Origin: a virus
Taxonomy: Duplodnaviria; Heunggongvirae; Uroviricota; Caudoviricetes
Strand: one strand, 5' to 3'
DNA length: 24,063 nucleotides
Virus record (IMG/VR): IMGVR_UViG_2657245124_000006
Shown here: positions 1-21,096 of the stretch, piece by piece
How positions within the stretch are numbered: position 1 is the stretch's first letter
How the letters are laid out: each line of letters starts with the position of its first letter
Notes under the pieces: generated by a model
What the model was told of the DNA's origin: nothing
What the model saw: the letters and a program-made list of their open reading frames with translations, nothing else
Database searches by the model: none
Made by a program: the position numbers and the translations under genes

Positions 1-468
1 TTAATTTAATCGGCTACGATAAAAGTCTCTTGTTATGTTGCGATCGATGACTACTTCACAACGTGCTGAAGGTCTGTAACCCTCACGAGCCTTAATCCAT
101 GGTTCTTCTTTATGAGTCATATCTTCAAGTTGTGCGCCAGAAAAAGCACCGTAGACTTCAAGAACGCCATCAATATGAGCTGCGGTTGCGGCTGGAATGG
201 ATGAAAGATCAAACCCAGGAGTGCGATCTGCAATCGTTATGTCCGAATACAGTGATTTTGTAGAAGAGAACCGGTTATAAATCGCACGGCTTACTGGGCC
301 ATGAATCCAAGCTTGAAACTCCTCATCCACTAACTTTTTATCGAAAAAAGCTAGATACCAAGCATCTGCGTAATAAGCTAATTTTTGCAGCTTCAAATTA
401 GACATAGTTTCACCTGAAGCTAAGATTTTTGTGATGATGTAATCACATAATTGGTTAATATTTATCAT
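1..468 (-). CDS. Panacea-domain (DUF4065) protein, GepA/SocA-like putative antitoxin
   Basis: 155 aa, ATG at 466-468, AGAGGGA ribosome-binding site upstream. The segment 'LKLQKLAYYADAWYLAFFDKKLVDEEFQAWIHGPVSRAIYNRF' matches the DUF4065 signature as I recall it. Stop codon is at window positions 1-3. Confidence 0.7.
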   Translation of the reverse strand: MININQLCDYIITKILASGETMSNLKLQKLAYYADAWYLAFFDKKLVDEEFQAWIHGPVSRAIYNRFSSTKSLYSDITIADRTPGFDLSSIPAATAAHIDGVLEVYGAFSGAQLEDMTHKEEPWIKAREGYRPSARCEVVIDRNITRDFYRSRLN

Positions 469-5652: not shown

Positions 5653-8063
5653 GTCATGCCGATATGAGCGACTCTAGCGGCTTTAACGAGGCCGCTGCAG
5701 CATTTTCATGGAACGGCCCGAAAAAGGCCATAAACCCTTATCTGGACCCGGCGGAAGTTGCGCCGGTTTCTGCGCTTTCAAACCTGATCACTCTGTATGC
5801 TGCCGATAACGAGCAGGAACAGCTGCGCCGCGAGGAATTGAGTGAACAGGTCTGGGAGCGTTATTTCTTTAATGAATCCCGTGATCCTGTCCAGCGCGAA
5901 ATGGAGCAGGATAAGCTCATTAGTCGGGCAAAGCTGGCGCATGAGCAGCAGCGTTTTAACCCGGACATGGTCATTCTGGCGGACGTCAGCGCCCAGCCCA
6001 CCCACATCAGCAAGCCGCTGATGCAACGTATCGAATACTTCAGCAGCCTGGGCAGGCCAAAGGCTTATTCCCGCTATTTGCGTGAGACGATTAAGCCATG
6101 TCTGGAGCGACTGGATTGTGTACGCGACAGTCAGCTATCTACTTCTTTCCGTTTTATGGCAAGCCATCAAGGGCTGGAGGGCCTGCTGATCCTGCCTGAA
6201 ATGAGTCAGGATCAGGTGAAACGCCTGTCCACCCTGGTAGCTGCGCATATGAGCATGTGTCTTGAGGCCGCTTGTGGTGATTTGTATACCAACGATGACG
6301 TAAAGCCAGAAGAAATCCGCAAGACATGGGAAAAGGTGGCAGCGGAAACCCTGCGTCTGGATGTTATCCCGCCTGCGTTTGAGAAACTTCGTCGGAAAAG
6401 AAACCGCCGCAAACCTGTGCCCTATGAACTCATACCGGGTTCGCTGGCACGTATGCTTTGCGCCGACTGGTGGTATCGAAAATTGTGGAAGATGCGTTGC
6501 GAATGGCGGGAAGAGCAGTTGCGTGCTGTCTGTCTGGTCAGCAAAAAAGCATCTCCCTATGTCAGCTATGAAGCCGTGATGCATAAACGTGAGCAGCGCC
6601 GCAAGTCGCTGGAGTTTTTCCGTTCTCATGAACTGGTGAACGAAGACGGAGACACGCTGGATATGGAAGATGTGGTAAACGCCAGCAGCAGCAACCCGGC
6701 ACATCGCCGCAATGAGATGATGGCCTGCGTTAAAGGTCTGGAGCTTATCGCGGAAATGCGCGGTGACTGCGCCGTTTTCTACACCATCACATGTCCGTCA
6801 CGTTTCCATTCCACGCTCAATAACGGCAGGCCCAACCCGACCTGGACAAATGCGACGGTAAGACAAAGCAGCGATTATCTGGTCGGCATGTTTGCTGCAT
6901 TTCGTAAGGCGATGCACAAAACCGGGTTGCGCTGGTATGGCGTACGGGTGGCTGAGCCGCACCATGACGGTACTGTGCACTGGCATCTCATGTGTTTCAT
7001 GCGCAAAAAAGACCGCCGCGCCATTACTGCATTGTTGCGTAAGTTTGCCATCCGTGAAGACCGCGAGGAGCTGGGCAATAACACGGGCCCACGCTTTAAG
7101 TCTGAGCTGATAAACCCACGCAAAGGAACGCCGACAAGCTACATCGCAAAATACATCAGTAAGAACATTGACGGGCGTGGTCTGGCTGGCGAGATCAGCA
7201 AGGAAACGGGTAAATCCCTGCGTGATAACGCCGAATACGTTAATGCCTGGGCGTCTCTGCATCGTGTTCAGCAGTTCCGCTTCTTTGGTATTCCGGGGCG
7301 CCAGGCTTACCGTGAACTGCGATTGCTGGCTGGTCAGGCGGCAAGACAACAGGGTGACAAAAAAGCAGGTGCGCCGGTACTGGATGATCCGCGTCTTGAT
7401 GCCATCCTGGCTGCTGCTGATGCTGGTTGTTTTGCCACCTACATCATGAAGCAGGGCGGCGTACTGGTTCCCCGCAAATATCACCTTATCAGAACAGCTT
7501 ATGAAATTAACGAAGAGCCGACTGCCTATGGCGATCACGGTATTCGTATTTATGGCATCTGGTCACCCATTTCAGAGGGCAAGATCTGCACTCATGCAGT
7601 GAAGTGGAAAATGGTTCGTAAGGCCGTTGACGTTCAGGAGGCGGTAGCCGACCAGGGCGCTTGCGCCCCTTGGACTCGTGGCAATAACTGTCCCCTTGCT
7701 GAAAATTTGTACCAACAAGGGAAAGACAAATCAGCTGATGGGGGCTCCAGAACGGACATTACCCGCATGGATGACAAGGAATTGCACGATTACCTGCACA
7801 GTATGAGCAAAAAAGATCGCCGGGAGCTGGCAGCAAGGTTGCGCTTGGTGAAACCGAAACGGCGTAAAGACTACAAACAGCGAATTACAGATCATCAGCA
7901 TCAGCAGCTCGTCTATGAACTGAAGTCCAGAGGATTTGATGGCAGCGAGAAAGAAGTCGATTTGCTCCTTCGCGGTGGCAGTATTCCGTCAGGAGCAGGC
8001 TTGCGTATCTTCTATCGGAACCAGCGTTTGCGGGAAGATGATAAGTGGCGGAACCTGTATTAA
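5649..8063 (+). CDS. A: Replication initiation protein, P2 gpA-like rolling-circle HUH endonuclease
   Basis: 804 aa. HUH-like 'VHWHLMCF' and two-tyrosine motif '[12 protein letters not shown]'. Position matches P2 gene A. Confidence 0.85.
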
Positions 8064-8155
8064 TTACGCGGGTTAACAATTCGTGCTCTTAATAATACCA
8101 GGCATATCAGGCTGATGAACGTAAAAAAACGTTTTACATCAGTAAGATTATTATA

Positions 8156-8175
8156 TACTGTAAATATAAACAGTG
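8156..8175 (+). promoter_or_regulatory. LexA box (SOS operator)
   Basis: TACTGTAAATATAAACAGTG: CTG-N10-CAG with AT-rich centre, 17/20 match to TACTGTATATATATACAGTA. A TTTACA -35-like hexamer lies just upstream. It is 42 bp before the 8217 start. Confidence 0.65.
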
Positions 8176-8216
8176 GTTATGTATACAGCATTTCTTGTGG
8201 TGTCATAGGAGGAAAG

Positions 8217-8405
8217 ATGCAGGACTATTTTTTGGAGTCTTTGAAGCTCCAGCGCATTGATTTTTTTCTTAAGCTTGTAGCGGCTAGTGAGTGTAGTGAT
8301 GAAGAGAAGGGGCTGGCTTTGCAGTGGGTTTCTGAACTAACAGATGAACTCATGGCAAAAATCAGAACCCACGAATACAACCGCTCAATGGATGTCATCA
8401 GTTGA
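8217..8405 (+). CDS. Small hypothetical protein (62 aa), first gene of the SOS module
   Basis: ATG at 8217 with GGAGGAAAG ribosome-binding site. The track ORF from 8115 would read through the promoter and LexA box. Confidence 0.5.
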   Translation: MQDYFLESLKLQRIDFFLKLVAASECSDEEKGLALQWVSELTDELMAKIRTHEYNRSMDVIS

Positions 8406-8415
8406 GGTGACTTTT

Positions 8416-8649
8416 ATGCGCATTGAAATAATGATCGATAAAGAGCAGAAGATTAGCCAGTCTATCCTGGACGCCCTTGAATCCGAGCTTTACCGCAATC
8501 TGCGCCCCCTGTATCCCAAAACGGTAATTCGTATCCGCAAAGGTAGCTCTAACGGTGTGGAACTGACCGGACTGCAACTGGACGAAGAAAGAAAACAAGT
8601 GATGAAAATTATGCAGAAGGTGTGGGAAGACGACAGCTGGCTGCATTAA
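8416..8649 (+). CDS. dinI: DinI-family protein
   Basis: 77 aa from ATG at 8416 (GAGGTGA ribosome-binding site). 'MRIEIMIDKEQ...LDALESEL...ERKQVMKIMQKVWEDDSWLH' aligns with E. coli DinI as recalled ('MRIEVTIAK...IDALAGEL...DKQRISEILQETWESADDW'). Confidence 0.85.
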   Translation: MRIEIMIDKEQKISQSILDALESELYRNLRPLYPKTVIRIRKGSSNGVELTGLQLDEERKQVMKIMQKVWEDDSWLH

Positions 8650-8651
8650 GA

Positions 8652-8694
8652 AACGTTGCTGGCGTCTGAACTTGCTTCTGACGTCAGCAACGTT
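8652..8694. terminator. Strong hairpin after dinI; possible bidirectional terminator
   Basis: Arms AACGTTGCTGGCGTC and GACGTCAGCAACGTT form a 15-bp stem with one G.U pair and a 13-nt loop. No clean U-tract on the + strand; a short TCTT follows on the - strand. Confidence 0.4.
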
Positions 8695-8915
8695 GAACAA
8701 CTAGTTTAGTGGGGCATTAGTCATGGGGTAAAATACAGTAACCATTATTTTCACTTCCGCTCAGATTTAACCGAACGTTAGTTTTGCTACGTATGATGGG
8801 CTGCAAATTACCTTTTGGGATTTGTGATAGATACGAAAATCCTATTAGATGCTTGTTAGACCGGAAGCGCCACTTCGAACGAAAAGTAATGGCCACTTAT
8901 GCCGGTTTAAAAGCC

Positions 8916-9446
8916 TTAACCTTGTATAGTTATTTGAATATTTTCTTCATTGACACCAAAGTATAGGGCTAGCCCTGCTTTTGCCTCCTGAAGTGTTAAC
9001 GGCTTAACTACATTTTCTTCTTCTTCTTCGTACTCATCACCCGCTTGATCGACAATCGAATTAGTCGGGGTTAATTTTGGAAGAGCTTTAAATTCCAACT
9101 TGTCAGCCTCAATGCCAATGTCTTTGAGGTTGCGATAAGAAACGGGATTCCGATTGCCATCCCATTGTCCTGGGATGTCAATTTCAGCATAAGAATTGAT
9201 GTTTATGATCCAGCGTTTAGGGTTTTCTGGAGCCCTGCTTACTCCCGAGATTCGACCGATCATAAAAGCATGATGATGTTTTGCTTCTTGTGATCCCCAG
9301 TCCTTTCTCGAATTTTGTACACAAACTAAATATTCGTGCTTAGCTGCATGGCTGGCGTCAAGTCTCCATGCTTGGCTTCCCCCTGTGTTCAAAATCTCTG
9401 TTAAACCACGAGCAGTAAGTACAGTAATACAGTTGGTAGTAGCCAT
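8916..9446 (-). CDS. Uncharacterised 176-aa protein, cargo gene at the phage right end
   Basis: ATG at 9444-9446, no competing frame, AT-rich. Acidic patch 'DEYEEEEEN'. I recognise no family. Transcribed divergently from the OLD-like gene. Confidence 0.6.
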   Translation of the reverse strand: MATTNCITVLTARGLTEILNTGGSQAWRLDASHAAKHEYLVCVQNSRKDWGSQEAKHHHAFMIGRISGVSRAPENPKRWIININSYAEIDIPGQWDGNRNPVSYRNLKDIGIEADKLEFKALPKLTPTNSIVDQAGDEYEEEEENVVKPLTLQEAKAGLALYFGVNEENIQITIQG

Positions 9447-9763
9447 TGAATTGTGACCCCGTCTTTTTTAGAGAAATACTATTGATGAATGTAGTTTACG
9501 TATTTTTTTATTGAGTAGTCAAGTTAGTATTCTGCTCGTTATTGGCTGTTTTTTGAGTGTTGTGAGTTAGTACTTTGTGTAGTACCTCTTGGTTTATGAG
9601 GGTTAAATCTAAGTTATGACAAAGGGAGGCAGGGGGAACGCGCAGCGCAAGGTGTACAGGAGGCCATAAGGACTCACTTGAAGTAAGAAAAGATCGATAA
9701 AGCAACAATGCATGTCTATGCCGCATGAATTCGCATGATCGTTTGAGGATCGTTTTAGCTGAG

Positions 9764-9791
9764 GCCCGCTAGGAATGGCGGGCTTTTGTTT
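9764..9791 (+). terminator. Rho-independent terminator
   Basis: GCCCGC - TAGGAATG - GCGGGC followed by TTTTGTTT. U-tract is on the + strand only. Confidence 0.6.
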
Positions 9792-9832
9792 ATGTCATGC
9801 AAGTGCATGAAAACCACTACATAAAGCGGGCA

Positions 9833-9851
9833 GGCGTGGCGGGGATACGAG
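9833..9851. other. Putative cos (cohesive-end) site of the P2/186 family
   Basis: GGCGTGGCGGGGATACGAG. The first 13 nt match the P2/186 cos motif GGCG(A/T)GGCGGGGA as I remember it. Located left of Q/P, where cos is expected. From memory, not a database hit. Confidence 0.45.
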
Positions 9852-9888
9852 CGCGCGCTGGGAGGTATAAGAATGAAGTACAATTAAC

Positions 9889-9916
9889 TTCACTTTGTTG
9901 AGTAAAATGCTATAAG
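9889..9916 (+). promoter_or_regulatory. Putative promoter of the OLD-like gene: TTCACT - 16 bp - TGcTATAAG
   Basis: -35-like and extended -10-like elements about 70 bp upstream of the 9983 start. Confidence 0.35.
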
Positions 9917-9982
9917 AATAATGCAAATTATTGAGTCCCATTAGTTCAAAACTTAGGGATATCTTATGTGAAAGGAGGTTAT

Positions 9983-11668
9983 ATGTTAGATAAATTGATT
10001 TTTAATTCAGGAAGTAATCCAACATCTAAATCTTCATTATCGGTTGACTTGACTCCATTGACAATTTTTGTGGGGCCGAATAATAGTGGTAAATCTAGAG
10101 CTTTAATCGATATAGAAAATCAACTGACAACCCGAAATGCAGCGCAGGGAGAAGTAATAAAACAGATATTAATCAAACCACTTTCTGAGGATGAAGCAAA
10201 AAAGGAAATTGAATCTTTACAAGTTGAGCCAAACCAGGATGAAAAGCATGCGGGGCATGTTGTTTTATCTAGGCTAAACCTCCGTGGTGAAGGAATATCT
10301 AGGATTCTAGTGTATTTGGATGGAATGTTAAGAGAATTCCAGCAACCCAATGAATTCAATCGGGAGCATCTATATCAATATTACTCGTTGCTGACTCTAA
10401 GGTTGGATGGTAGAAGTCGACTTTCCTTAACTTCAAGTCAAGGTTCATCCGATTTACAAGGAGAACCTACGAATAACCTTTCATTTCTTTTTAAAAATAA
10501 TAAAGCAAGGATGGAGCTAAGAGATATCGTTTTTGATGCTTTCGGGAAGTATCTTGTTATTGATCCAACAAATATAGGTTATCTTAGAATTCGTCTTTCT
10601 GAGCGCGCTCCTGAGACTGAACAAGAAGAAAGAGGTTGGGATGAAAAGTCAGTGCTTTTTCATTCAAAAGCGTCATTGATTACAGAGGCTAGCGATGGTG
10701 TTAATGCTTTTGTTGGGATGATGATTTCGCTGATAGTTGGCTCACCAAAGGTGACTCTAATTGATGAGCCGGAAGCTTTTTTACATCCATCCTTATGCTC
10801 AAAGTTAGGAAAGGAAATATCTAGGATTAGTGCTCATAGTAATAAAAATGTGTTTATTTCAACGCATAGCGCTAATTTTTTAATGGGTTGTGTTCAAGGT
10901 AAAGTGCCATTGAATATAGTTAGGCTTACTTTTGATGGTAAATCTGGTACGTCTAGATTACTAACAAAGGAACAATTGACGCCGCTCATGAGAAATCCGT
11001 TATTAAGATCTATTGGTGTGCTAAACGCATTGTTTTATAATTACGTTGTCGTTACTGAAGCGGATGCAGATAGGGCATTTTATCAAGAGATTAATGAGCG
11101 CTTATTGGCTGCTGGAGATCCTCGGGGTATTGAGGGATGCCTGTTTTTGAATGCTCAAAACAAACAAACTGTTTGGGATATAGTAAAACCCCTTCGTGAG
11201 CTAGGTATTCCCTGCGTTGGAGTGGTAGATATCGATATATTGAAGGAGGGAGGAGTTGTATGGAAAAAACCAATGCTTGGAGCTTTTTTTCCAGAAATGA
11301 AGCATGAAACTTTAGGTTTGGAAAGACAAAAGCTTTTTCAAGCCTTCAAAAATACGAATAAAAATATGAAGACAGATGGGGGCCTCTCCTTGTTATCGGG
11401 TTCAGATAAAACCGCCTGCTCTGAGTTTTTTAAATCCCTTTCAGATTATGGGGTTTTTGTCGTTCCAACGGGCGAGATCGAGTCTTGGTTGCAAAATCTT
11501 GAAATAGGTCGAGGAAAGAATACTTGGTTAACAAGTATTTTCGAGAAGATGGGGGATGATCCTAATGATGAATCATATGTGAAGCCATCTGAAGGTGATG
11601 TTTGGGATTTTATTGGGAATATAAAGCACTGGTTGGTTAACCCTGAAAGGAAGGGTATTCCCGAGTGA
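9983..11668 (+). CDS. OLD-family / AbiL-like predicted nuclease (ABC-type ATPase plus C-terminal Toprim-like domain)
   Basis: 561 aa from ATG at 9983 (AGGAGG ribosome-binding site; track start at 9968 is GTG). Walker A 'GPNNSGKS', Walker B/D-loop 'VTLIDEPEAFLHPS', H-loop-like 'ISTHSAN'. C-terminal 'VVVTEADAD' and 'VGVVDIDIL' fit a Toprim E...DxD pattern. Very AT-rich. Confidence 0.8.
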   Translation: MLDKLIFNSGSNPTSKSSLSVDLTPLTIFVGPNNSGKSRALIDIENQLTTRNAAQGEVIKQILIKPLSEDEAKKEIESLQVEPNQDEKHAGHVVLSRLNLRGEGISRILVYLDGMLREFQQPNEFNREHLYQYYSLLTLRLDGRSRLSLTSSQGSSDLQGEPTNNLSFLFKNNKARMELRDIVFDAFGKYLVIDPTNIGYLRIRLSERAPETEQEERGWDEKSVLFHSKASLITEASDGVNAFVGMMISLIVGSPKVTLIDEPEAFLHPSLCSKLGKEISRISAHSNKNVFISTHSANFLMGCVQGKVPLNIVRLTFDGKSGTSRLLTKEQLTPLMRNPLLRSIGVLNALFYNYVVVTEADADRAFYQEINERLLAAGDPRGIEGCLFLNAQNKQTVWDIVKPLRELGIPCVGVVDIDILKEGGVVWKKPMLGAFFPEMKHETLGLERQKLFQAFKNTNKNMKTDGGLSLLSGSDKTACSEFFKSLSDYGVFVVPTGEIESWLQNLEIGRGKNTWLTSIFEKMGDDPNDESYVKPSEGDVWDFIGNIKHWLVNPERKGIPE

Positions 11669-11675
11669 GTTTATT

Positions 11676-11700
11676 GAGCCGCTTTAGCGGCTCTTTTCAT
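11676..11700 (+). terminator. Rho-independent terminator after the OLD-like gene
   Basis: GAGCCGC - TTTA - GCGGCTC followed by TTTTCAT, sitting between the convergent OLD-like and Q genes. Confidence 0.6.
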
Positions 11701-16553: not shown

Positions 16554-17204
16554 ATGAGCCTGAGTCCCGCACGGCAGCATCGCCTGCGCGTTCAGGCTGA
16601 ACAGGCCGCCCGCGAGGGCGGCAGTGTTCGCCACGCATCGGGCTATGACCTGATGCTGCTGCAACTGGCGGAAGACCGCCGCCGTCTCAAGGGCGTTCAG
16701 TCCACGGTCAAAAAAGCGGAAATCAAGGTGGAGCTGCTGCCGAAGTACGCCGCCTGGGCAGAGGGTGTCCTGGCTGCCGGAGGCGCTCAACAGGATGACG
16801 TGCTGATGTACGTGATGCTGTGGCGCATTGATGCCGGAGATTATGCCGGGGCGCTGGAGATCGGGCGTCATGCCCTGCGTCATGGCTGGGTGATGCCGCT
16901 GGGTAACCGCAACGTGCAGACCGTGCTGGCAGAGGAAATGGCAGACGCCGCGCAGAGCGCAATGCTTGCCGCCACCGGCTTTGATGCCGATCTGTTGCTG
17001 CAGACGCTGGAGCTGACAGACGGTCTGGATATGCCGGACCAGTCACGGGCGCGTCTGCATAAAGCGATTGGCGCTGTCCTGAGTGAAAGCAATCCGGCTT
17101 CCGCCCTTAATCATCTCAACCATGCGTTACAGCTCGATCCCCGCTGTGGCGTGAAAAAAGACAAACAGCAGCTGGAGCGCAGACTGCGCAATGACAGCCG
17201 CTGA
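16554..17204 (+). CDS. M: Terminase small subunit, P2 gpM-like
   Basis: 216 aa, ATG at 16554 with GGAGAG ribosome-binding site, directly after N. Confidence 0.85.
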   Translation: MSLSPARQHRLRVQAEQAAREGGSVRHASGYDLMLLQLAEDRRRLKGVQSTVKKAEIKVELLPKYAAWAEGVLAAGGAQQDDVLMYVMLWRIDAGDYAGALEIGRHALRHGWVMPLGNRNVQTVLAEEMADAAQSAMLAATGFDADLLLQTLELTDGLDMPDQSRARLHKAIGAVLSESNPASALNHLNHALQLDPRCGVKKDKQQLERRLRNDSR

Positions 17205-17299
17205 CAGAACGTGCCCCCGCGCACGGGCGGCACGGGGTGGCGAAAGGCACTACCACATCAAAACCCCGTCCACCGCCCTCTATTTCAGGAGAAAGCAGC

Positions 17300-17764
17300 A
17301 TGAAGTTTGTTGCGCCAGAACAGGCACCGGAACAGGCGGAAATCATCAGAAATACGCCGTTCTGGCCTGATGTGGACCTGTCGGAGTTTCGCAGTGTGAT
17401 GCGCACTGACGGCACGGTGACGCAGCCGCGTTTAAAGCAGGTTGCGCTGTCGGCAATTTCGGAGGTCAACGCAGAGCTGTATGAGTTTCGCAGACGCCAG
17501 CAGATGCTGGGATATGCCTCGCTGGCAGAGGTTCCGGCGGAACAGCTGGACGGGAAAAGCGAGCGAATTCAGCACTATTTCAACGCGGTTTACTGCTGGG
17601 CTCGCGCCATGCTCAACGAACGTTACCAGGACTATGACGCCACGGCATCCGGTGTGAAGCGGGGCGAGGAACTGGCAGAAGCCAGCGGTGATTTGTGGCG
17701 TGACGCCCGCTGGGCCATCTGCCGGGTACAGGATGCGCCGCACTGCACAGTGGAGCTTATCTGA
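17300..17764 (+). CDS. L: Head completion protein, P2 gpL-like
   Basis: 154 aa from ATG at 17300 (AGGAG ribosome-binding site). The track start at 17237 lacks one. Confidence 0.8.
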   Translation: MKFVAPEQAPEQAEIIRNTPFWPDVDLSEFRSVMRTDGTVTQPRLKQVALSAISEVNAELYEFRRRQQMLGYASLAEVPAEQLDGKSERIQHYFNAVYCWARAMLNERYQDYDATASGVKRGEELAEASGDLWRDARWAICRVQDAPHCTVELI

Positions 17765-17967
17765 TGAAAGTGCGTGCGCATCAGTATGACACGGTGGACG
17801 CGCTTTGCTGGCGTCATTACGGGCGCACGCAGGGTGTCACGGAGCAGGTACTGAAGGCAAATCCGGGGCTTGCCGAATTTGGCCCTTTTTTACCTCACGG
17901 GCTGCAGGTGGAGCTGCCGGACATTCCGACCACCACCACCGTGCAGACCGTCCAGCTATGGGACTGA
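17764..17967 (+). CDS. X: Tail protein X, P2 gpX-like
   Basis: 67 aa, the same length as P2 gpX. 'YGRT.GV.E.VL.ANPGLAE...LPHG..VELPD' is conserved. Confidence 0.85.
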   Translation: MKVRAHQYDTVDALCWRHYGRTQGVTEQVLKANPGLAEFGPFLPHGLQVELPDIPTTTTVQTVQLWD

Positions 17968-17970
17968 ATT

Positions 17971-18186
17971 ATGACGCTTGAGCGAATCAGCGCCTTTATC
18001 ACGTATTGCATCGCCGTTGTGCTGGCCTGGCTGGGCGATTTGTCCATCAAGGATGCCTCAACGCTGGGTGGCCTGATGATTGGTGTGCTGATGCTGGCTA
18101 TCAACTGGTACTACAAACACAAAGCCTACCAGCTTCTGCGCGACGGGCAGATCTCGCGGGAGGACTATGAATCCATCAATCGTTAA
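17971..18186 (+). CDS. Holin, small two-TMD pinholin-like
   Basis: 71 aa with two hydrophobic segments and a charged C-terminus. It sits immediately before, and overlaps, the endolysin gene. Confidence 0.7.
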   Translation: MTLERISAFITYCIAVVLAWLGDLSIKDASTLGGLMIGVLMLAINWYYKHKAYQLLRDGQISREDYESINR

Positions 18187-18679
18187 ACGCTGCCTTGTCG
18201 GGGCCGTGCTGGCTATTGCTGCCACGCTGCCGGGTTTTCAGCAGCTTCACACCTCCGTGGAGGGGCTGAAACTGATTGCCGATTACGAAGGCTGTCGTCT
18301 GCAGCCGTATCAGTGCAGCGCGGGTGTCTGGACCGACGGCATTGGTAATACGTCGGGCGTCATTCCCGGCAAAACTATTACGGAACGACAGGCAGCAGAA
18401 GGGCTGATCTCCAACGTGCTACGTGTGGAGCGGGCGCTGGAAAGGTGTGTGAAGCAACAGCCGCCGCAGAAGGTGTATGACGCTACGGTGTCGTTTGCCT
18501 TCAACGTGGGGACGGGCAATGCCTGCAGTTTCACGCTGGTGAAATTACTCAATCAGCGGCGCTGGGCGGATGCGTGCCGACAATTGCCGCGCTGGGTTTA
18601 TGTAAAAGGTGTTTTTAATCAGGGGCTGGATAACCGCCGTGCGCGGGAGATGGCCTGGTGCTTACAGGGAGCAAACTGA
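18167..18679 (+). CDS. Endolysin, GH24 T4-lysozyme family with N-terminal SAR-like segment
   Basis: 170 aa. 'EGLKLIADYEGCRLQPYQCSAGVWTDGIGNT' matches the T4 lysozyme E..D..T catalytic region. N-terminal 'CLVGAVLAIAATLPG' is a weakly hydrophobic Gly/Ala-rich stretch. Confidence 0.85.
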   Translation: MNPSIVKRCLVGAVLAIAATLPGFQQLHTSVEGLKLIADYEGCRLQPYQCSAGVWTDGIGNTSGVIPGKTITERQAAEGLISNVLRVERALERCVKQQPPQKVYDATVSFAFNVGTGNACSFTLVKLLNQRRWADACRQLPRWVYVKGVFNQGLDNRRAREMAWCLQGAN

Positions 18680-18680
18680 A

Positions 18681-19058
18681 ATGAAAAAGAAATTAATCAG
18701 CGGACTGTTTCTGATGTTATGGATGGCGCTGTTAATCGCAGCAATGGTGTATCCGCAGGGGATTTTTCCGGTCCTGGCAGCGTCCGGTGTTTGGGTAGCC
18801 TGTCTGCTGACATGGGGGGCAATTACGGTAGCACTGGCTGCGTTAATTAAGAATGGCCCGCTCTGGCAGGAGTTAAGGGCATCTTTGCTGAAGACAATTA
18901 CCCGAAAAGAAAACGTATTTATCAGCTGGGTGATGCGATTGCTGATTGTCGTCAGTCTCGCCTGGACGGGGTGGGCTATTACCCTTGTCTTTTATCTACT
19001 GACCGTTATTGCCTTCTGGATCACCCGTAATCAGATGGCGCAACAGGTAGCAGCATGA
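18681..19058 (+). CDS. lysA: LysA-like membrane protein (lysis timing)
   Basis: 125 aa from ATG at 18681 (GGGAG ribosome-binding site); several transmembrane segments; position as P2 lysA. Confidence 0.65.
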   Translation: MKKKLISGLFLMLWMALLIAAMVYPQGIFPVLAASGVWVACLLTWGAITVALAALIKNGPLWQELRASLLKTITRKENVFISWVMRLLIVVSLAWTGWAITLVFYLLTVIAFWITRNQMAQQVAA

Positions 19059-19483
19059 ACCGGTTGCTGCTGGTTGTGCTGGCGTTATTACTGGCGGCGC
19101 TGGGCTGGCAGACGTGGCGGCTGGCTGATGCCAGCCAGACCATCAGCACGCAGGCAGACGAGCTTCGGAGCAAAAGCCAGGCACTGGCAAAGAGCAACAG
19201 CCAGCTTATCAGCCTGTCCATTCTGACTGAAGCCAATAACCGGGAGCAGGCGCGGCTCTATGCCGAAGCAGAACAGACCAGTGTACTGCTGAGACAACGA
19301 CAACACCGGATTGAGGAACTGAAACGTGAGAACGAGGATTTACGCCGCTGGGCTGATACTCCTTTGCCTGCTGATATTATCCGGCTGCGGGAACGCCCCA
19401 CACTCACCAGAGGTGCAGCTTACCGTCAGTGGTTGTCCGCGAGTGACGCCGTGTCGGCTGGGGCAGGCAGCGCCGCGCACTAA
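19055..19483 (+). CDS. lysB: LysB, Rz-like inner-membrane spanin
   Basis: 142 aa with N-terminal transmembrane anchor 'LLLVVLALLLAALGW' and a charged coiled-coil-like remainder. Confidence 0.75.
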   Translation: MNRLLLVVLALLLAALGWQTWRLADASQTISTQADELRSKSQALAKSNSQLISLSILTEANNREQARLYAEAEQTSVLLRQRQHRIEELKRENEDLRRWADTPLPADIIRLRERPTLTRGAAYRQWLSASDAVSAGAGSAAH

Positions 19484-19616
19484 CGGTGACCTGAACGCGT
19501 TGCTGGATGAAACGGAGGCCGCCTGGGCGGTCTGTGCAGACAAAGTGGACATGATTATTGCGTGTCAGGAGCGAAACAGTGAACAAACCAAAATCCCTGC
19601 GCCACGCCCTCAATAA
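19326..19616 (+). CDS. lysC: LysC, Rz1-like outer-membrane lipoprotein spanin
   Basis: 96 aa in an alternate frame, starting inside lysB (GTG at 19326). Lipobox 'LLILSGC'. Confidence 0.7.
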   Translation: MRTRIYAAGLILLCLLILSGCGNAPHSPEVQLTVSGCPRVTPCRLGQAAPRTNGDLNALLDETEAAWAVCADKVDMIIACQERNSEQTKIPAPRPQ

Positions 19617-20010
19617 AGCGGTGCCTTATGTCCGCAATAACCCGGACAAACTGCATCTGTTTGTGGATAACGGTTCGCTGGTTGCCACGGGGGCCTGCTC
19701 CATGTCATGGGAGTACCGCTATACCCTGAACGTGGTGATAGAGGATTTCAGCGGCGACCAAAATCTGCTGATGGCCCCGGTTTTACTGTGGCTTCGGGAT
19801 AACCAGCCCGATGCCATCAATAACCCGGCGTTACGGGAAAAGCTATTCACCTTTGAGGTGGATATTTTGCGCAACGATGTCTGTGATATCAGCCTTAACC
19901 TGCAACTGACGGAACGTGTGCTGGTCAGTACTGACGGCAGTGTGTCGAGCGTTGAAGCTGTAGCAGAACCCGATGAATCTGAAGAAATGTGGACGGTGAA
20001 ACGTGGCTGA
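19579..20010 (+). CDS. R: Tail completion protein, P2 gpR-like
   Basis: About 143 aa from GTG at 19579, which has an AGGAG ribosome-binding site 8 nt upstream. Track start at 19558 is TTG. Confidence 0.78.
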   Translation: MNKPKSLRHALNKAVPYVRNNPDKLHLFVDNGSLVATGACSMSWEYRYTLNVVIEDFSGDQNLLMAPVLLWLRDNQPDAINNPALREKLFTFEVDILRNDVCDISLNLQLTERVLVSTDGSVSSVEAVAEPDESEEMWTVKRG

Positions 20011-20449
20011 ACTGCAGAAGGTGGACGACTGGCTGAGTGCCTTGCTGGCGAATCTGGAACCAGTCACGAGAAGCCGCATGATGCGCCAGCTGGCGCAGGA
20101 ACTGCGCCGGACACAGCAGCAGAATATCAGGATGCAGCGCAATCCAGATGGCAGCAGTTATGAACCGCGCAGGGTAACAGCACGCAGCAAAAAAGGCCGC
20201 ATCAAACGTCAGATGTTTGCAAAGCTGCGCACCACAAAATACCTGAAAACTACCGCCAGCGCCGGCTCTGCCAGCGTACAGTTTGAAGGCAAGGTGCAGC
20301 GTATTGCCCGTGTTCACCATTACGGCCTGCGTGATCGCGTCAGTCGCAAAGGACCGGAGGTCCGTTACGCAGAGCGCCGCCTGCTGGGTGTAAATGATGA
20401 TGTTGAGGCAATGACCCGCGACATGATTCTGCAATGGCTGGCGGGGTGA
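20003..20449 (+). CDS. S: Tail completion protein, P2 gpS-like
   Basis: 148 aa from GTG at 20003, overlapping the R stop. P2 S is about 150 aa. Confidence 0.78.
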   Translation: MAELQKVDDWLSALLANLEPVTRSRMMRQLAQELRRTQQQNIRMQRNPDGSSYEPRRVTARSKKGRIKRQMFAKLRTTKYLKTTASAGSASVQFEGKVQRIARVHHYGLRDRVSRKGPEVRYAERRLLGVNDDVEAMTRDMILQWLAG

Positions 20450-20453
20450 TCTT

Positions 20454-20471
20454 TGTATCAGCACTGATACA
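20454..20471. promoter_or_regulatory. Late-promoter activator site (TGT-N12-ACA) upstream of V
   Basis: TGTATCAGCACTGATACA is a perfect 9-bp-arm palindrome in the S-V gap, where the P2 late promoter P_V is expected. Confidence 0.5.
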
Positions 20472-20517
20472 AGTTGCAGCACTGCCGCCTTTCTTCCCCT
20501 GATGGCAACCTTTCCCT

Positions 20518-21096
20518 ATGAACGCACAATTAACCGAAATCATGCGCCTTATCACCAACCTGATCCGCACTGGGGTAGTCACCGAAGTGGACAGGGAAAA
20601 CTGGCTTTGCCGGGTGAAAACGGGCGAGCTTGAAACCAACTGGATCAGCTGGCTGACGCTGCGTGCCGGGAATGCCCGCACATGGTGGCGACCATCGGAA
20701 GGTGAGCAGGTGGTGCTGCTGAGTCTGGGCGGCAATCTGGAAACCGCCTTTGCGTTACCCGCCATCTATTCGAATCAGTTCGCGCCACCGTCGACGTCGG
20801 CGGACGCCTGCGTGACAGAACATCCTGACGGTGGCTGGTTTGAATACGAACCCGCCACCGGGCGCTGGTATATCAGTGGCATCAAATCAATGGTCATTGA
20901 GGCCGCTGACAACATCACCCTGAAAACCAGTGAGTTTGTACTGGAGGCTGACCGCACGCGCATTAACAGCGAAGTGGTGATCAATGGTGGCGTTACCCAG
21001 GGCGGCGGAGCGATGAGTTCTAACGGGATCGTGGTTGATGCGCATCAGCATACTGGCGTCCTGAAAGGCGGCGACACAACCGGAGGCCCGGTATGA
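20518..21096 (+). CDS. V: Baseplate spike protein, P2 gpV-like
   Basis: 192 aa, ATG at 20518, with a Gly-rich C-terminus. Confidence 0.85.
   Translation: MNAQLTEIMRLITNLIRTGVVTEVDRENWLCRVKTGELETNWISWLTLRAGNARTWWRPSEGEQVVLLSLGGNLETAFALPAIYSNQFAPPSTSADACVTEHPDGGWFEYEPATGRWYISGIKSMVIEAADNITLKTSEFVLEADRTRINSEVVINGGVTQGGGAMSSNGIVVDAHQHTGVLKGGDTTGGPV

Follow-up and report, generated by a model that had tools for sequence, protein, structure and literature searches.

The window, that is, the whole stretch of 24,063 nucleotides that was analysed, contains five tightly coupled lysis genes on the plus strand at positions 17971-19616, all confirmed at these coordinates in the list of open reading frames. 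With their flanking tail genes, the features are as follows.

17764..17967, plus strand: left flank, tail protein X, homologue of P2 gpX (PF05489, E=5e-34; 61% identity to P2 X)
17971..18186, plus strand: class II holin, 71 aa (open reading frame, PF16080, phrog_20, hydropathy)
18167..18679, plus strand: endolysin, a GH24 lysozyme of P1 Lyz type, 170 aa (PF00959, PDB matches)
18167..18238, plus strand: endolysin codons 1-24, putative signal-anchor-release (SAR) domain, MNPSIVKR-CLVGAVLAIAATLPGF (hydropathy, conserved Cys9)
18287..18334, plus strand: endolysin catalytic motif E41-G-C43-x6-C50-x5-T56 (alignment to P1 Lyz)
18681..19058, plus strand: LysA-like accessory membrane protein, 125 aa (phrog_162, NF038378)
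19055..19483, plus strand: LysB, i-spanin (Rz-like), 142 aa (TIGR03495, phrog_89)
19326..19616, plus strand: LysC, o-spanin (Rz1-like), 96 aa, GTG start (NF038368, PF23793)
19579..20010, plus strand: right flank, tail completion protein R, homologue of P2 gpR (PF06891, E=2e-46; 54% identity to P2 R; start according to RefSeq)

At the level of sequence families, the five genes are assigned by matches that lie far above chance level. The holin and endolysin genes overlap by 20 nt, the endolysin being read in the +1 frame. In P2, the lysis region likewise lies between tail genes X and R of the late operon, and P2 LysA, LysB and LysC belong to PHROG families common with the cassette (phrog_162, phrog_89 and phrog_456/952), as proposed in an earlier, sequence-only reading of this DNA, according to which the accessory lysis and spanin genes keep P2 organisation. 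A scan for promoters and terminators over positions 17000-20700 returned counts close to the shuffled expectation, and no internal signal was found. Antisense open reading frames are also present in the region and are unannotated in the identical RefSeq record.

Both spanin proteins pass curated NCBIfam models of the P2 proteins. LysB matches TIGR03495 (phage_LysB) with E=2e-49 and 167 bits, above the cut-off of 92.75, and falls in phrog_89 with P2 LysB, to which it is 35% identical over 79 aa. A transmembrane segment at its N-terminus (residues 4-20) precedes a periplasmic domain, and residues 23-98 match PF12325, a coiled-coil family, at a score below threshold. LysC matches NF038368 (P2_Rz1) above its cut-off (E=1e-36, residues 5-88) and PF23793 (E=2e-15), and is 45% identical to P2 LysC over 92 aa from residue 1. 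A Shine-Dalgarno sequence, GAGGA, is found 8 nt 5' of its GTG, and the signal peptide MRTRIYAAGLILLCLLILSG is followed by the lipobox Cys21 (19386-19388), with Gly at +2; the lipobox LLILSGC (LSGC) is thus intact, as had been read earlier. The lysC frame had also been called embedded, but it is overlapped instead. Relative to lysB, the gene is read in the +1 frame; 158 nt are common to both, a further 133 nt follow the lysB stop, and the last 38 nt also belong to the start of gene R. P2 lysC, too, is in the +1 frame of a lysB that it overlaps and extends into R. The arrangement is therefore that of P2 LysB/LysC and not the embedded one of lambda Rz/Rz1 (spanin gene architectures are reviewed in PMC6139136). 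In RefSeq, the lysC start is placed at a CTG, which drops most of the signal peptide.

Between the endolysin gene and lysB sits the gene of the LysA-like protein, with the Shine-Dalgarno sequence AGGGAG 8 nt 5' of its ATG. The protein has four hydrophobic segments and matches phrog_162 with E=1.3e-43 (P2 LysA matches the same PHROG with E=1.8e-67) and NCBIfam NF038378, the DNZ54_00345 family, with E=7e-35. It is strongly diverged from P2 LysA, pairwise BLAST being weak (31% over 32 aa), and belongs to the DNZ54_00345 subfamily. lysA is missing from 24 of 78 otherwise near-identical cassettes (~30%). Its product is a putative antiholin or lysis-timing factor. Among the best 120 database matches to the endolysin, 43 are endolysin-LysA fusions of 276-296 aa. 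A programmed frameshift between the two genes was considered and rejected: the junctions differ, with independent 1-nt indels, the fusion clusters listed are nearly all singletons, and no fusion was found in the 78 IMG/VR loci.

The endolysin belongs to the GH24 (T4-lysozyme type) family PF00959, with E=1.1e-38, and to phrog_7. Its best PDB matches are P1 Lyz (1XJT, E=2.6e-26; 1XJU, E=6.6e-25), then phage 21 R (3HDE/3HDF), and 4ZPU is also among them; it is 34% identical to HP1 Lys (E=2e-27). The catalytic triad E-x8-(D/C)-x5-T is present as E41, C50 and T56, with a caging cysteine, Cys43, at E+2; the motif EGCR..PY.C.AGVWTDGIGNT is conserved and aligns with AEGCRRDPYMCPAGVWTDGIGNT of P1 Lyz. 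P1 Lyz and the cassette endolysin both have E-x8-C-x5-T, a caging Cys at E+2 and, within the N-terminal membrane segment, a further Cys. The segment is shorter in the cassette enzyme, and its Cys9 (codon 18191-18193) stands at the very start, whereas the P1 Cys is a few residues in. R21 has E-x8-D-x5-T by sequence, and its N-terminal anchor is not known to contain Cys; it is reportedly regulated by refolding and not by a disulfide (Sun et al. 2009).

The cysteines are highly conserved. K7, C9, E41, C43, C50 and T56 are invariant among the window, Fels-2, Yersinia 56.17, EtG, Midge and HP1, at 35-91% identity. Among 55 close homologues, C9 and C50 never vary and C43 is kept in at least 90%. Loci were also collected by the holin: a search with the holin alignment gave 80 loci, all with 100%-identical holins, so diversity was drawn from the HP1 and Yersinia holin queries. 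In 194 of 196 loci with HP1-family holins the downstream neighbour is such a lysozyme, and an N-terminal Cys is found in all 120 distinct endolysins that adjoin these holins. Among diverse representatives whose N-terminus is hydrophobic and whose catalytic residue is Cys, the N-terminal Cys is present in 27 of 28 and the E+2 Cys in 28 of 28; the two representatives with a catalytic Asp have neither. An AlphaFold2 model built with the 55 close homologues has a mean pLDDT of 71 but falls below 50 at residues 42-65, which is too uncertain for the geometry of the Cys43/Cys50 disulfide. On this evidence, the endolysin is predicted to be of the SAR type, in the disulfide-caged subtype of P1 Lyz.

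The N-terminus comprises K7-R8 and then C9-F24, CLVGAVLAIAATLPGF. Its most hydrophobic 15-residue stretch, L10-F24, is 47% Gly/Ala/Ser/Thr, in keeping with the Gly/Ala-rich anchor on a T4-lysozyme fold that the sequence-only reading had described. On the Hessa scale, the sum for the best stretch of 17 residues is +3.08, making this the least hydrophobic membrane segment of the cassette. The hydrophobic stretch is short (13-16 residues) and includes an A-I-A motif, and the same features could be those of an ordinary cleavable Sec signal peptide, in which case a periplasmic enzyme would be silenced otherwise than by tethering. The core ahead of Pro22, CLVGAVLAIAATL, has only 13 residues and follows two basic ones, and A16-I17-A18 can be read directly as a possible cleavage motif. 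Moreover, the N-terminus of HP1 Lys is a signal peptide according to SignalP (PMC7312051), and there is a precedent of a misassigned SAR domain in T4 RI, which proved to be cleaved (PMC8385771). Cleavage is nevertheless disfavoured because a specific cysteine is conserved in the segment, which would not be expected in a cleaved peptide. This invariant Cys co-occurs with the catalytic and E+2 cysteines, and the same triad in P1 Lyz, the prototype of this kind of SAR endolysin, serves activation through disulfide isomerisation once the uncleaved SAR domain is released (PMC6116005, citing Xu et al. 2004 and 2005). A cleavable signal peptide, named at the outset as the finding that would overturn the SAR assignment, thus appears quite unlikely, while the short core and A-I-A leave some room for it.

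The holin matches PF16080, the HP1 family, with E=4.3e-9 and 36.7 bits (curated cut-off 28.8), and phrog_20 with E=2e-26, a PHROG that also holds HP1 Hol; RefSeq labels it 'HP1 family phage holin', a family that is TCDB 1.E.7. The match to PF04971 (P21 holin S) is under the curated cut-off (E=7e-5, 23.2 bits against 26), and no NCBIfam model was matched. Pairwise BLAST against HP1 Hol is not significant (21% identity, E=0.19). Family membership therefore rests on profiles, pairwise BLAST against both HP1 Hol and P2 Y being uninformative. Profile alignment with phage 21 S21 by hhalign gave a probability of 86% and E=4.7e-6 and spans both transmembrane segments, so that remote homology to this pinholin is detectable; together with the closeness of the endolysin to P1 Lyz 1XJT, this upholds the resemblance to the P21/P1 type claimed earlier. 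Hydropathy gives the 71-residue protein two hydrophobic stretches and no more, as first described; they span residues 6-22 and 29-47 and are joined by an acidic loop of 6 residues. A third transmembrane segment is impossible since the C-terminal tail (residues 49-71, 23 residues) is charged, hydrophilic and basic. From the positive-inside rule, both termini are probably cytoplasmic (N-in, C-in).

The hol and lys products of Haemophilus phage HP1 are an experimentally characterised pinholin and SAR endolysin (PMC7312051), and they share with the cassette the Pfam and PHROG of the holin, the PHROG of the endolysin, its Cys triad and N-terminal anchor, the overlap of the two genes and a single holin start. 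HP1 differs in having no LysA and in the place of its cassette, which follows the tail tube gene and does not lie between X and R. In experiments, HP1 Hol killed cells that neither lysed nor leaked beta-galactosidase, and HP1 release requires Hol plus a Sec-dependent endolysin (PMC7312051). Phage 21 offers a similar pairing: S21-68 has two transmembrane segments and 68-71 aa, against 71 aa here, and is likewise encoded with a GH24 endolysin that bears an N-terminal anchor. However, hydropathy does not show the feature that marks the phage 21 pinholin, a first segment that is weakly hydrophobic and SAR-like. Segment 1 of the cassette holin (ISAFITYCIAVVLAWLG) has a Hessa sum of -0.56 and 35% Gly/Ala/Ser/Thr, and segment 2, at +1.94, is the weaker; the corresponding sums are +6.2 and +0.19 in S21-68, whose first segment is 65% Gly/Ala/Ser/Thr, and +3.9 and +0.5 in HP1 Hol, whose first segment is also weakly hydrophobic. 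Because the order of hydrophobicity is reversed, a phage 21-style exit of segment 1 from the membrane is not evident. In phage 21 itself, a pinholin deleted for segment 1 still functions and triggers early. Nor does the cassette holin have the 6-residue insertion or the dual start of S21, a single start codon being found and no dual-start motif. The label 'pinholin-like' fits the membership in the HP1 family and the remote homology to S21, but not a first segment that is more hydrophobic and not SAR-like, so a pinholin function, though plausible, is putative.

A canonical large-hole class II holin would fit several of the same facts, and this reading is possible though the less probable one. 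A SAR endolysin requires depolarisation only, so hole size is unconstrained by it and could be large; SAR endolysins do function with canonical holins such as P1 LydA (PMC6116005, PMC9025707), the P1 holins being unrelated to the one studied here and encoded elsewhere in the P1 genome (PMC9025707). The wholly hydrophobic segment 1 and the absence of a dual-start motif point the same way, and the KP12 holin numbered beside the SAR endolysin (peg.320) has been modelled as a heptamer at low confidence (pLDDT ~51; PMC9902359). Against large holes stand membership in the family of HP1 Hol, which released no beta-galactosidase (PMC7312051), and the remote homology to the phage 21 pinholin. Moreover, every partner endolysin has an export signal of its own in the four of four holin lineages examined, which is expected if the holes block soluble enzyme. 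It is conceivable, if rather unlikely, that the HP1-family holins of enterobacterial P2-like phages switch topology in a way unlike phage 21 and are timed by alternative antiholin devices, namely the optional LysA-like protein and, in a Yersinia lineage that has no lysA, a dual-start holin (MGLKMEK...). Here segment 2, and not segment 1, is weakly hydrophobic and glycine-rich, which would agree with the N-in/C-out topology, an unusual one, that has been proposed for active HP1 Hol.

The cassette has many close counterparts. The same five genes in the same order are found in Escherichia phages 500465-1 (Wadgaonvirus) and Cartapus, in Klebsiella phages KP12 and 4LV2017, and in a prophage of E. 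coli 1297KP. Over positions 17700-19700, DNA identity is 96.6-97.0% to the best-matching phage records, KP12, 500465-1 and 4LV2017 among them; the KP12 copy (96.7% identical) has already been discussed in print (PMC9902359), and the holin of Cartapus is 100% identical in protein. E. coli 1297KP differs by 5 nt over the whole 24-kb window, and the sole coding difference in the cassette is a private endolysin change, S122F (18531 C>T). Phage Midge has the identical architecture, its genes being labelled class II holin, SAR endolysin, putative antiholin, i-spanin and o-spanin, and the annotation of phages EtG and Fels-2 shows it as well. Among 5426 complete E. coli genomes, 1031 (~19%) carry this cassette type and 1498 the P2 Y/K type.

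The sequence-only reading had described the cassette as mosaic, with a holin and endolysin unlike P2 Y and K. The dissimilarity is clear: P2 Y is a longer holin of 93 aa in phrog_175, P2 K is lambda R-like, in phrog_90 and without an export signal, and BLASTP of the cassette holin and endolysin against the two found nothing meaningful. Such a pair amid P2 homologues (X at 61%, R at 54%, LysC at 45% and LysB at 35%) could suggest that a P1/21-type module was recently spliced into a P2 backbone, which we regard as highly improbable. The whole backbone has diverged from P2 to an equal degree, with no more than 174 nt out of 2.4 kb aligning to P2 DNA, at 66% identity, and GC content is continuous through the region (0.545-0.588), without a compositional break. 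The same arrangement recurs in phages of four genera, Wadgaonvirus, Felsduovirus, Eganvirus and Duonihilunusvirus. In E. coli records, the 2-kb region and the holin-endolysin pair alone were matched in 1044 and 1036 cases respectively, nearly all in common, and no close relatives with swapped lysis genes were seen among the records matched. The word mosaic thus stands for a comparison across phage genera, but not for an unusual recombinant, given the 1031 genomes and the even GC content. Altogether, the arrangement is a standard cassette of several Peduoviridae genera, Fels-2, 500465-1, KP12, EtG and Midge included, and the present copy is an already known, ordinary lysis module of P2-family prophages in E. 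coli.

The reading preferred here, to which we give a probability of roughly 0.8, is a regular lysis cassette in the late operon of an E. coli prophage from the P2 family (Peduoviridae, Wadgaonvirus-like), with a SAR-endolysin/class II holin mechanism. Gene content, families, motifs with their conservation, and prevalence were observed directly. Export, tethering, disulfide isomerisation and the depolarisation trigger are transferred from experiments on P1 Lyz, phage 21 and HP1, and the general pinholin/SAR-endolysin model has been reviewed (PMC6116005). By this analogy, the endolysin would be exported through Sec and anchored in the inner membrane by a weakly hydrophobic SAR domain at its N-terminus, and it would stay silent as long as a disulfide with Cys43 ties up Cys50 of the active site. 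The class II holin would meanwhile build up in the membrane until its timed lesions collapse the proton motive force. The SAR domain may then leave the bilayer, and the thiol of Cys9 would attack the Cys43-Cys50 disulfide and free Cys50, after which the released endolysin would refold and degrade the cell wall. The LysB/LysC spanin complex would afterwards remove the outer membrane, and the LysA-like four-transmembrane protein may serve as an optional modulator of timing, possibly as an antiholin.

As a routine module whose logic is already understood from P1, phage 21 and HP1, the cassette has little discovery value. It provides an example for annotation, the CTG start given to lysC in RefSeq removing most of a signal peptide. 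For the P2-family phages, it illustrates that two lysis types are common, Y/K on the one hand and an HP1-type holin with a SAR endolysin on the other, and the natural presence or absence of lysA beside an identical holin is a ready comparison for the role of LysA.

The lysis cassette consists of five consecutive, translationally coupled ORFs at 17971-19616 on the plus strand, all of which were found where a sequence-only reading had placed them. It is located between two tail genes in a P2-type late operon, with the head genes O, N, M and L upstream.

17764-17967: tail gene X, left flank of the cassette
17971-18186, plus strand: holin, 71 aa
18167-18679, plus strand: endolysin, 170 aa, in the +1 frame with a 20-nt overlap with the holin gene
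18681-19058, plus strand: LysA-like membrane protein, 125 aa
19055-19483, plus strand: LysB, with an ATGA overlap with the preceding gene
19326-19616, plus strand: LysC, in the +1 frame relative to lysB
19579-20010: tail gene R, right flank of the cassette

P2 proteins X (61%), R (54%), LysC (45% over 92 aa) and LysB (35% over 79 aa) resemble their counterparts in the window, and P2 LysA, despite weak BLAST similarity, falls in the same PHROG as the LysA-like protein. In contrast, the P2 holin Y (phrog_175) and endolysin K (phrog_90) have no meaningful similarity to the window holin and endolysin, which belong to phrog_20 and phrog_7, the families of HP1 holin and endolysin (Hol/Lys). Because this pair matches the HP1 families and not Y/K, and the rest is P2-like, the earlier description is correct at the family level: a holin and endolysin of HP1/P1/21 type are joined to P2-type accessory and spanin genes.

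Both spanins score over the cut-offs of their families, LysB (one N-terminal transmembrane segment) with TIGR03495 and LysC with NF038368 (P2_Rz1) and PF23793. The lysC start is GTG 19326, preceded at 8 nt by the Shine-Dalgarno sequence GAGGA; from this codon LysC has the signal peptide MRTRIYAAGLILLCLLILSG and lipobox Cys21, in agreement with the annotated N-terminus of P2 LysC (MRTKIFAAG...) and with the NCBIfam model from residue 5. The RefSeq start, CTG at 19368, leaves six residues ahead of the lipobox cysteine and strips the n-region and most of the h-region from the lipoprotein signal peptide, and is probably a misannotation. The lipobox noticed earlier is intact, but lysC is not embedded as had been thought: since it ends 133 nt past the lysB stop (with a 38-nt overlap with R), it belongs to the 'overlapped' class typified by P2 (PMC6139136).

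The holin is placed above the cut-off in Pfam PF16080 'holin family HP1' (36.7 bits, cut-off 28.8), and its match to PF04971 'P21 holin S' is below cut-off. Simple hydropathy gives exactly two membrane segments, I6-G22 and A29-Y47, the number expected; a third is impossible because an acidic six-residue loop lies between them and the tail after them is charged. The label 'pinholin-like' is in keeping with HP1 family membership and by a remote alignment of the holin-family profile with both segments of the phage 21 pinholin S21 (hhalign probability 86%, E=4.7e-6; the S21 sequence used is 100% identical to phage 21 record OL657228). However, a defining feature of S21-68, a weakly hydrophobic first segment, is absent by Hessa comparison. 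The first segment of the window holin is strong (-0.56) and the second weaker (+1.94), the reverse of S21-68 (+6.2 for the first, with 65% Gly/Ala/Ser/Thr, and +0.19 for the second) and of HP1 Hol (+3.9 and +0.5), to which it has 21% pairwise identity. In experiments, HP1 Hol was lethal without lysis or beta-galactosidase leakage, and was needed for phage release (PMC7312051). Family and partner make a pinholin function of the window holin a reasonable assumption, but the label is unproven.

The endolysin is of the T4-lysozyme type, as proposed (PF00959, E=1e-38), with P1 Lyz as its best solved relative (1XJT, E=3e-26; 1XJU, E=7e-25), followed by phage 21 R. Its N-terminus, MNPSIVKR-CLVGAVLAIAATLPGF-QQ, contains two basic residues and then a short Gly/Ala/Thr-rich stretch, close to the Gly/Ala-rich anchor described before, with the lowest hydrophobicity among the membrane segments of the cassette. 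The catalytic motif E41-G-C43-RLQPYQ-C50-SAGVW-T56 (E-x8-C-x5-T plus a cysteine at E+2) aligns with AEGCRRDPYMCPAGVWT of P1 Lyz. Together with Cys9 in the anchor, the motif cysteines correspond to the P1 Lyz triad, which serves activation by disulfide isomerization once the uncleaved SAR (signal-anchor-release) domain is released (review PMC6116005). Six diverged P2-family phages, HP1 among them, all have the complete triad (35-91% identity), and in 55 close homologues C9 and C50 show no variation and C43 almost none. An N-terminal cysteine was found in all 120 distinct endolysins adjoining HP1-family holins (194/196 loci). Where diverse cluster representatives combine a hydrophobic N-terminus with a catalytic Cys, the N-terminal cysteine is present in 27/28 and the E+2 cysteine in 28/28, and both are missing from the two whose catalytic residue is Asp; as the representatives are interrelated, this co-occurrence is supporting evidence and not a formal statistic. 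It could also be hypothesized that the N-terminus is a cleaved signal peptide, given its short hydrophobic core and A-I-A motif, the signal peptide called by predictors in the HP1 homologue (PMC7312051) and the cautionary precedent of T4 RI for such assignments (PMC8385771). However, this appears quite unlikely because a specific cysteine is conserved inside the export segment.

E. coli strain 1297KP carries, between rcdA and ybjL, a prophage from which the 24-kb window differs by 5 nt in total (18531, 1702, 2481, 2675 and 12602). The C>T change at 18531 (codon 18530-18532) produces endolysin S122F; Ser122 is kept in at least 90% of the 55 close homologues, and the 78 related IMG/VR loci include none with Phe at this position (74 have Ser, and in 4 the motif was not matched). 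The nearest named phage is 500465-1, classified in Peduoviridae, genus Wadgaonvirus. A 561-aa OLD-family ATPase-TOPRIM nuclease (9983-11668, plus strand; PADLOC Old E=1e-20; Pfam AAA_15, AAA_21 and OLD-like TOPRIM) lies in a low-GC island (~8000-11700, GC 0.37-0.42) flanked by the replication genes and portal gene Q, a position presumably equivalent to the P2 old/tin cargo hotspot. It adjoins an unannotated 176-aa ORF (8916-9446, minus strand) with no family match. At the prophage edge, just outside the integrase gene (634-1653), a SocA-like Panacea antitoxin-domain protein is encoded (1-468, minus strand; PF13274, E=2e-19); in 1297KP, a 251-aa hypothetical protein adjoins it beyond the window start, and the two may form a cargo pair for toxin-antitoxin function or defence.

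The LysA-like protein (phrog_162; NCBIfam DNZ54_00345 family) has four hydrophobic segments. Where IMG/VR loci have a holin 100% identical to that of the window (L009-L088; n = 78), its gene is present in 52; in 24, lysB directly follows a 171-aa endolysin with a different C-terminus, so lysA is dispensable for this holin-endolysin pair, consistent with the P2 record, where lysA is 'nonessential; affects timing of lysis'. In Fels-2 its place is taken by two short ORFs of 77 and 57 aa. The lysA frame is open upstream of its ATG (18609-18681), and public protein collections contain many endolysin-LysA fusions of 276-296 aa. These result from 1-nt indels that arose independently close to the 3' end of the endolysin gene (e.g. 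a G lost from CGGGAG), are nearly all single-sequence clusters and occur in 0/78 loci; programmed frameshifting was rejected on these grounds in favour of apparent sequencing errors or prophage decay. In Yersinia-type P2-like phages (L005, L141-L199), lysB directly follows the endolysin without lysA, and holins start with MGLKMEK..., two Met codons with Lys between, similar to the dual-start antiholin/holin motif of phage 21 and lambda. The window holin has one start codon only, hence no such motif, and is accompanied by lysA. A dual-start holin and lysA may be alternative routes to antiholin supply.

The 2-kb cassette region matched 58 phage records and the holin protein 83, including Fels-2, SopEPhi, RE2010, Cartapus, 500465-1, KP12, 4LV2017, Yersinia phages, Erwinia EtG and Escherichia phage Midge. 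The individual gene labels in the Midge annotation read 'holin class II / SAR endolysin / putative antiholin / i-spanin / o-spanin', and a P1 Lyz-like SAR endolysin along with P2-type overlapped spanins was reported for KP12 (PMC9902359); the cassette is already known. The window pair occurs in 1031 and the P2 Y-K pair in 1498 of 5426 complete E. coli genomes; both lysis types are commonplace. GC content is smooth across the region, and no close relative with swapped lysis genes was seen (1044 records match the region, 1036 the pair alone). The cassette is mosaic in that a non-homologous holin and endolysin sit in a P2-type frame, but it is typical of its lineage and not unusual: the mosaic reflects an old replacement, between genera, by non-homologous genes and is not peculiar to the window.
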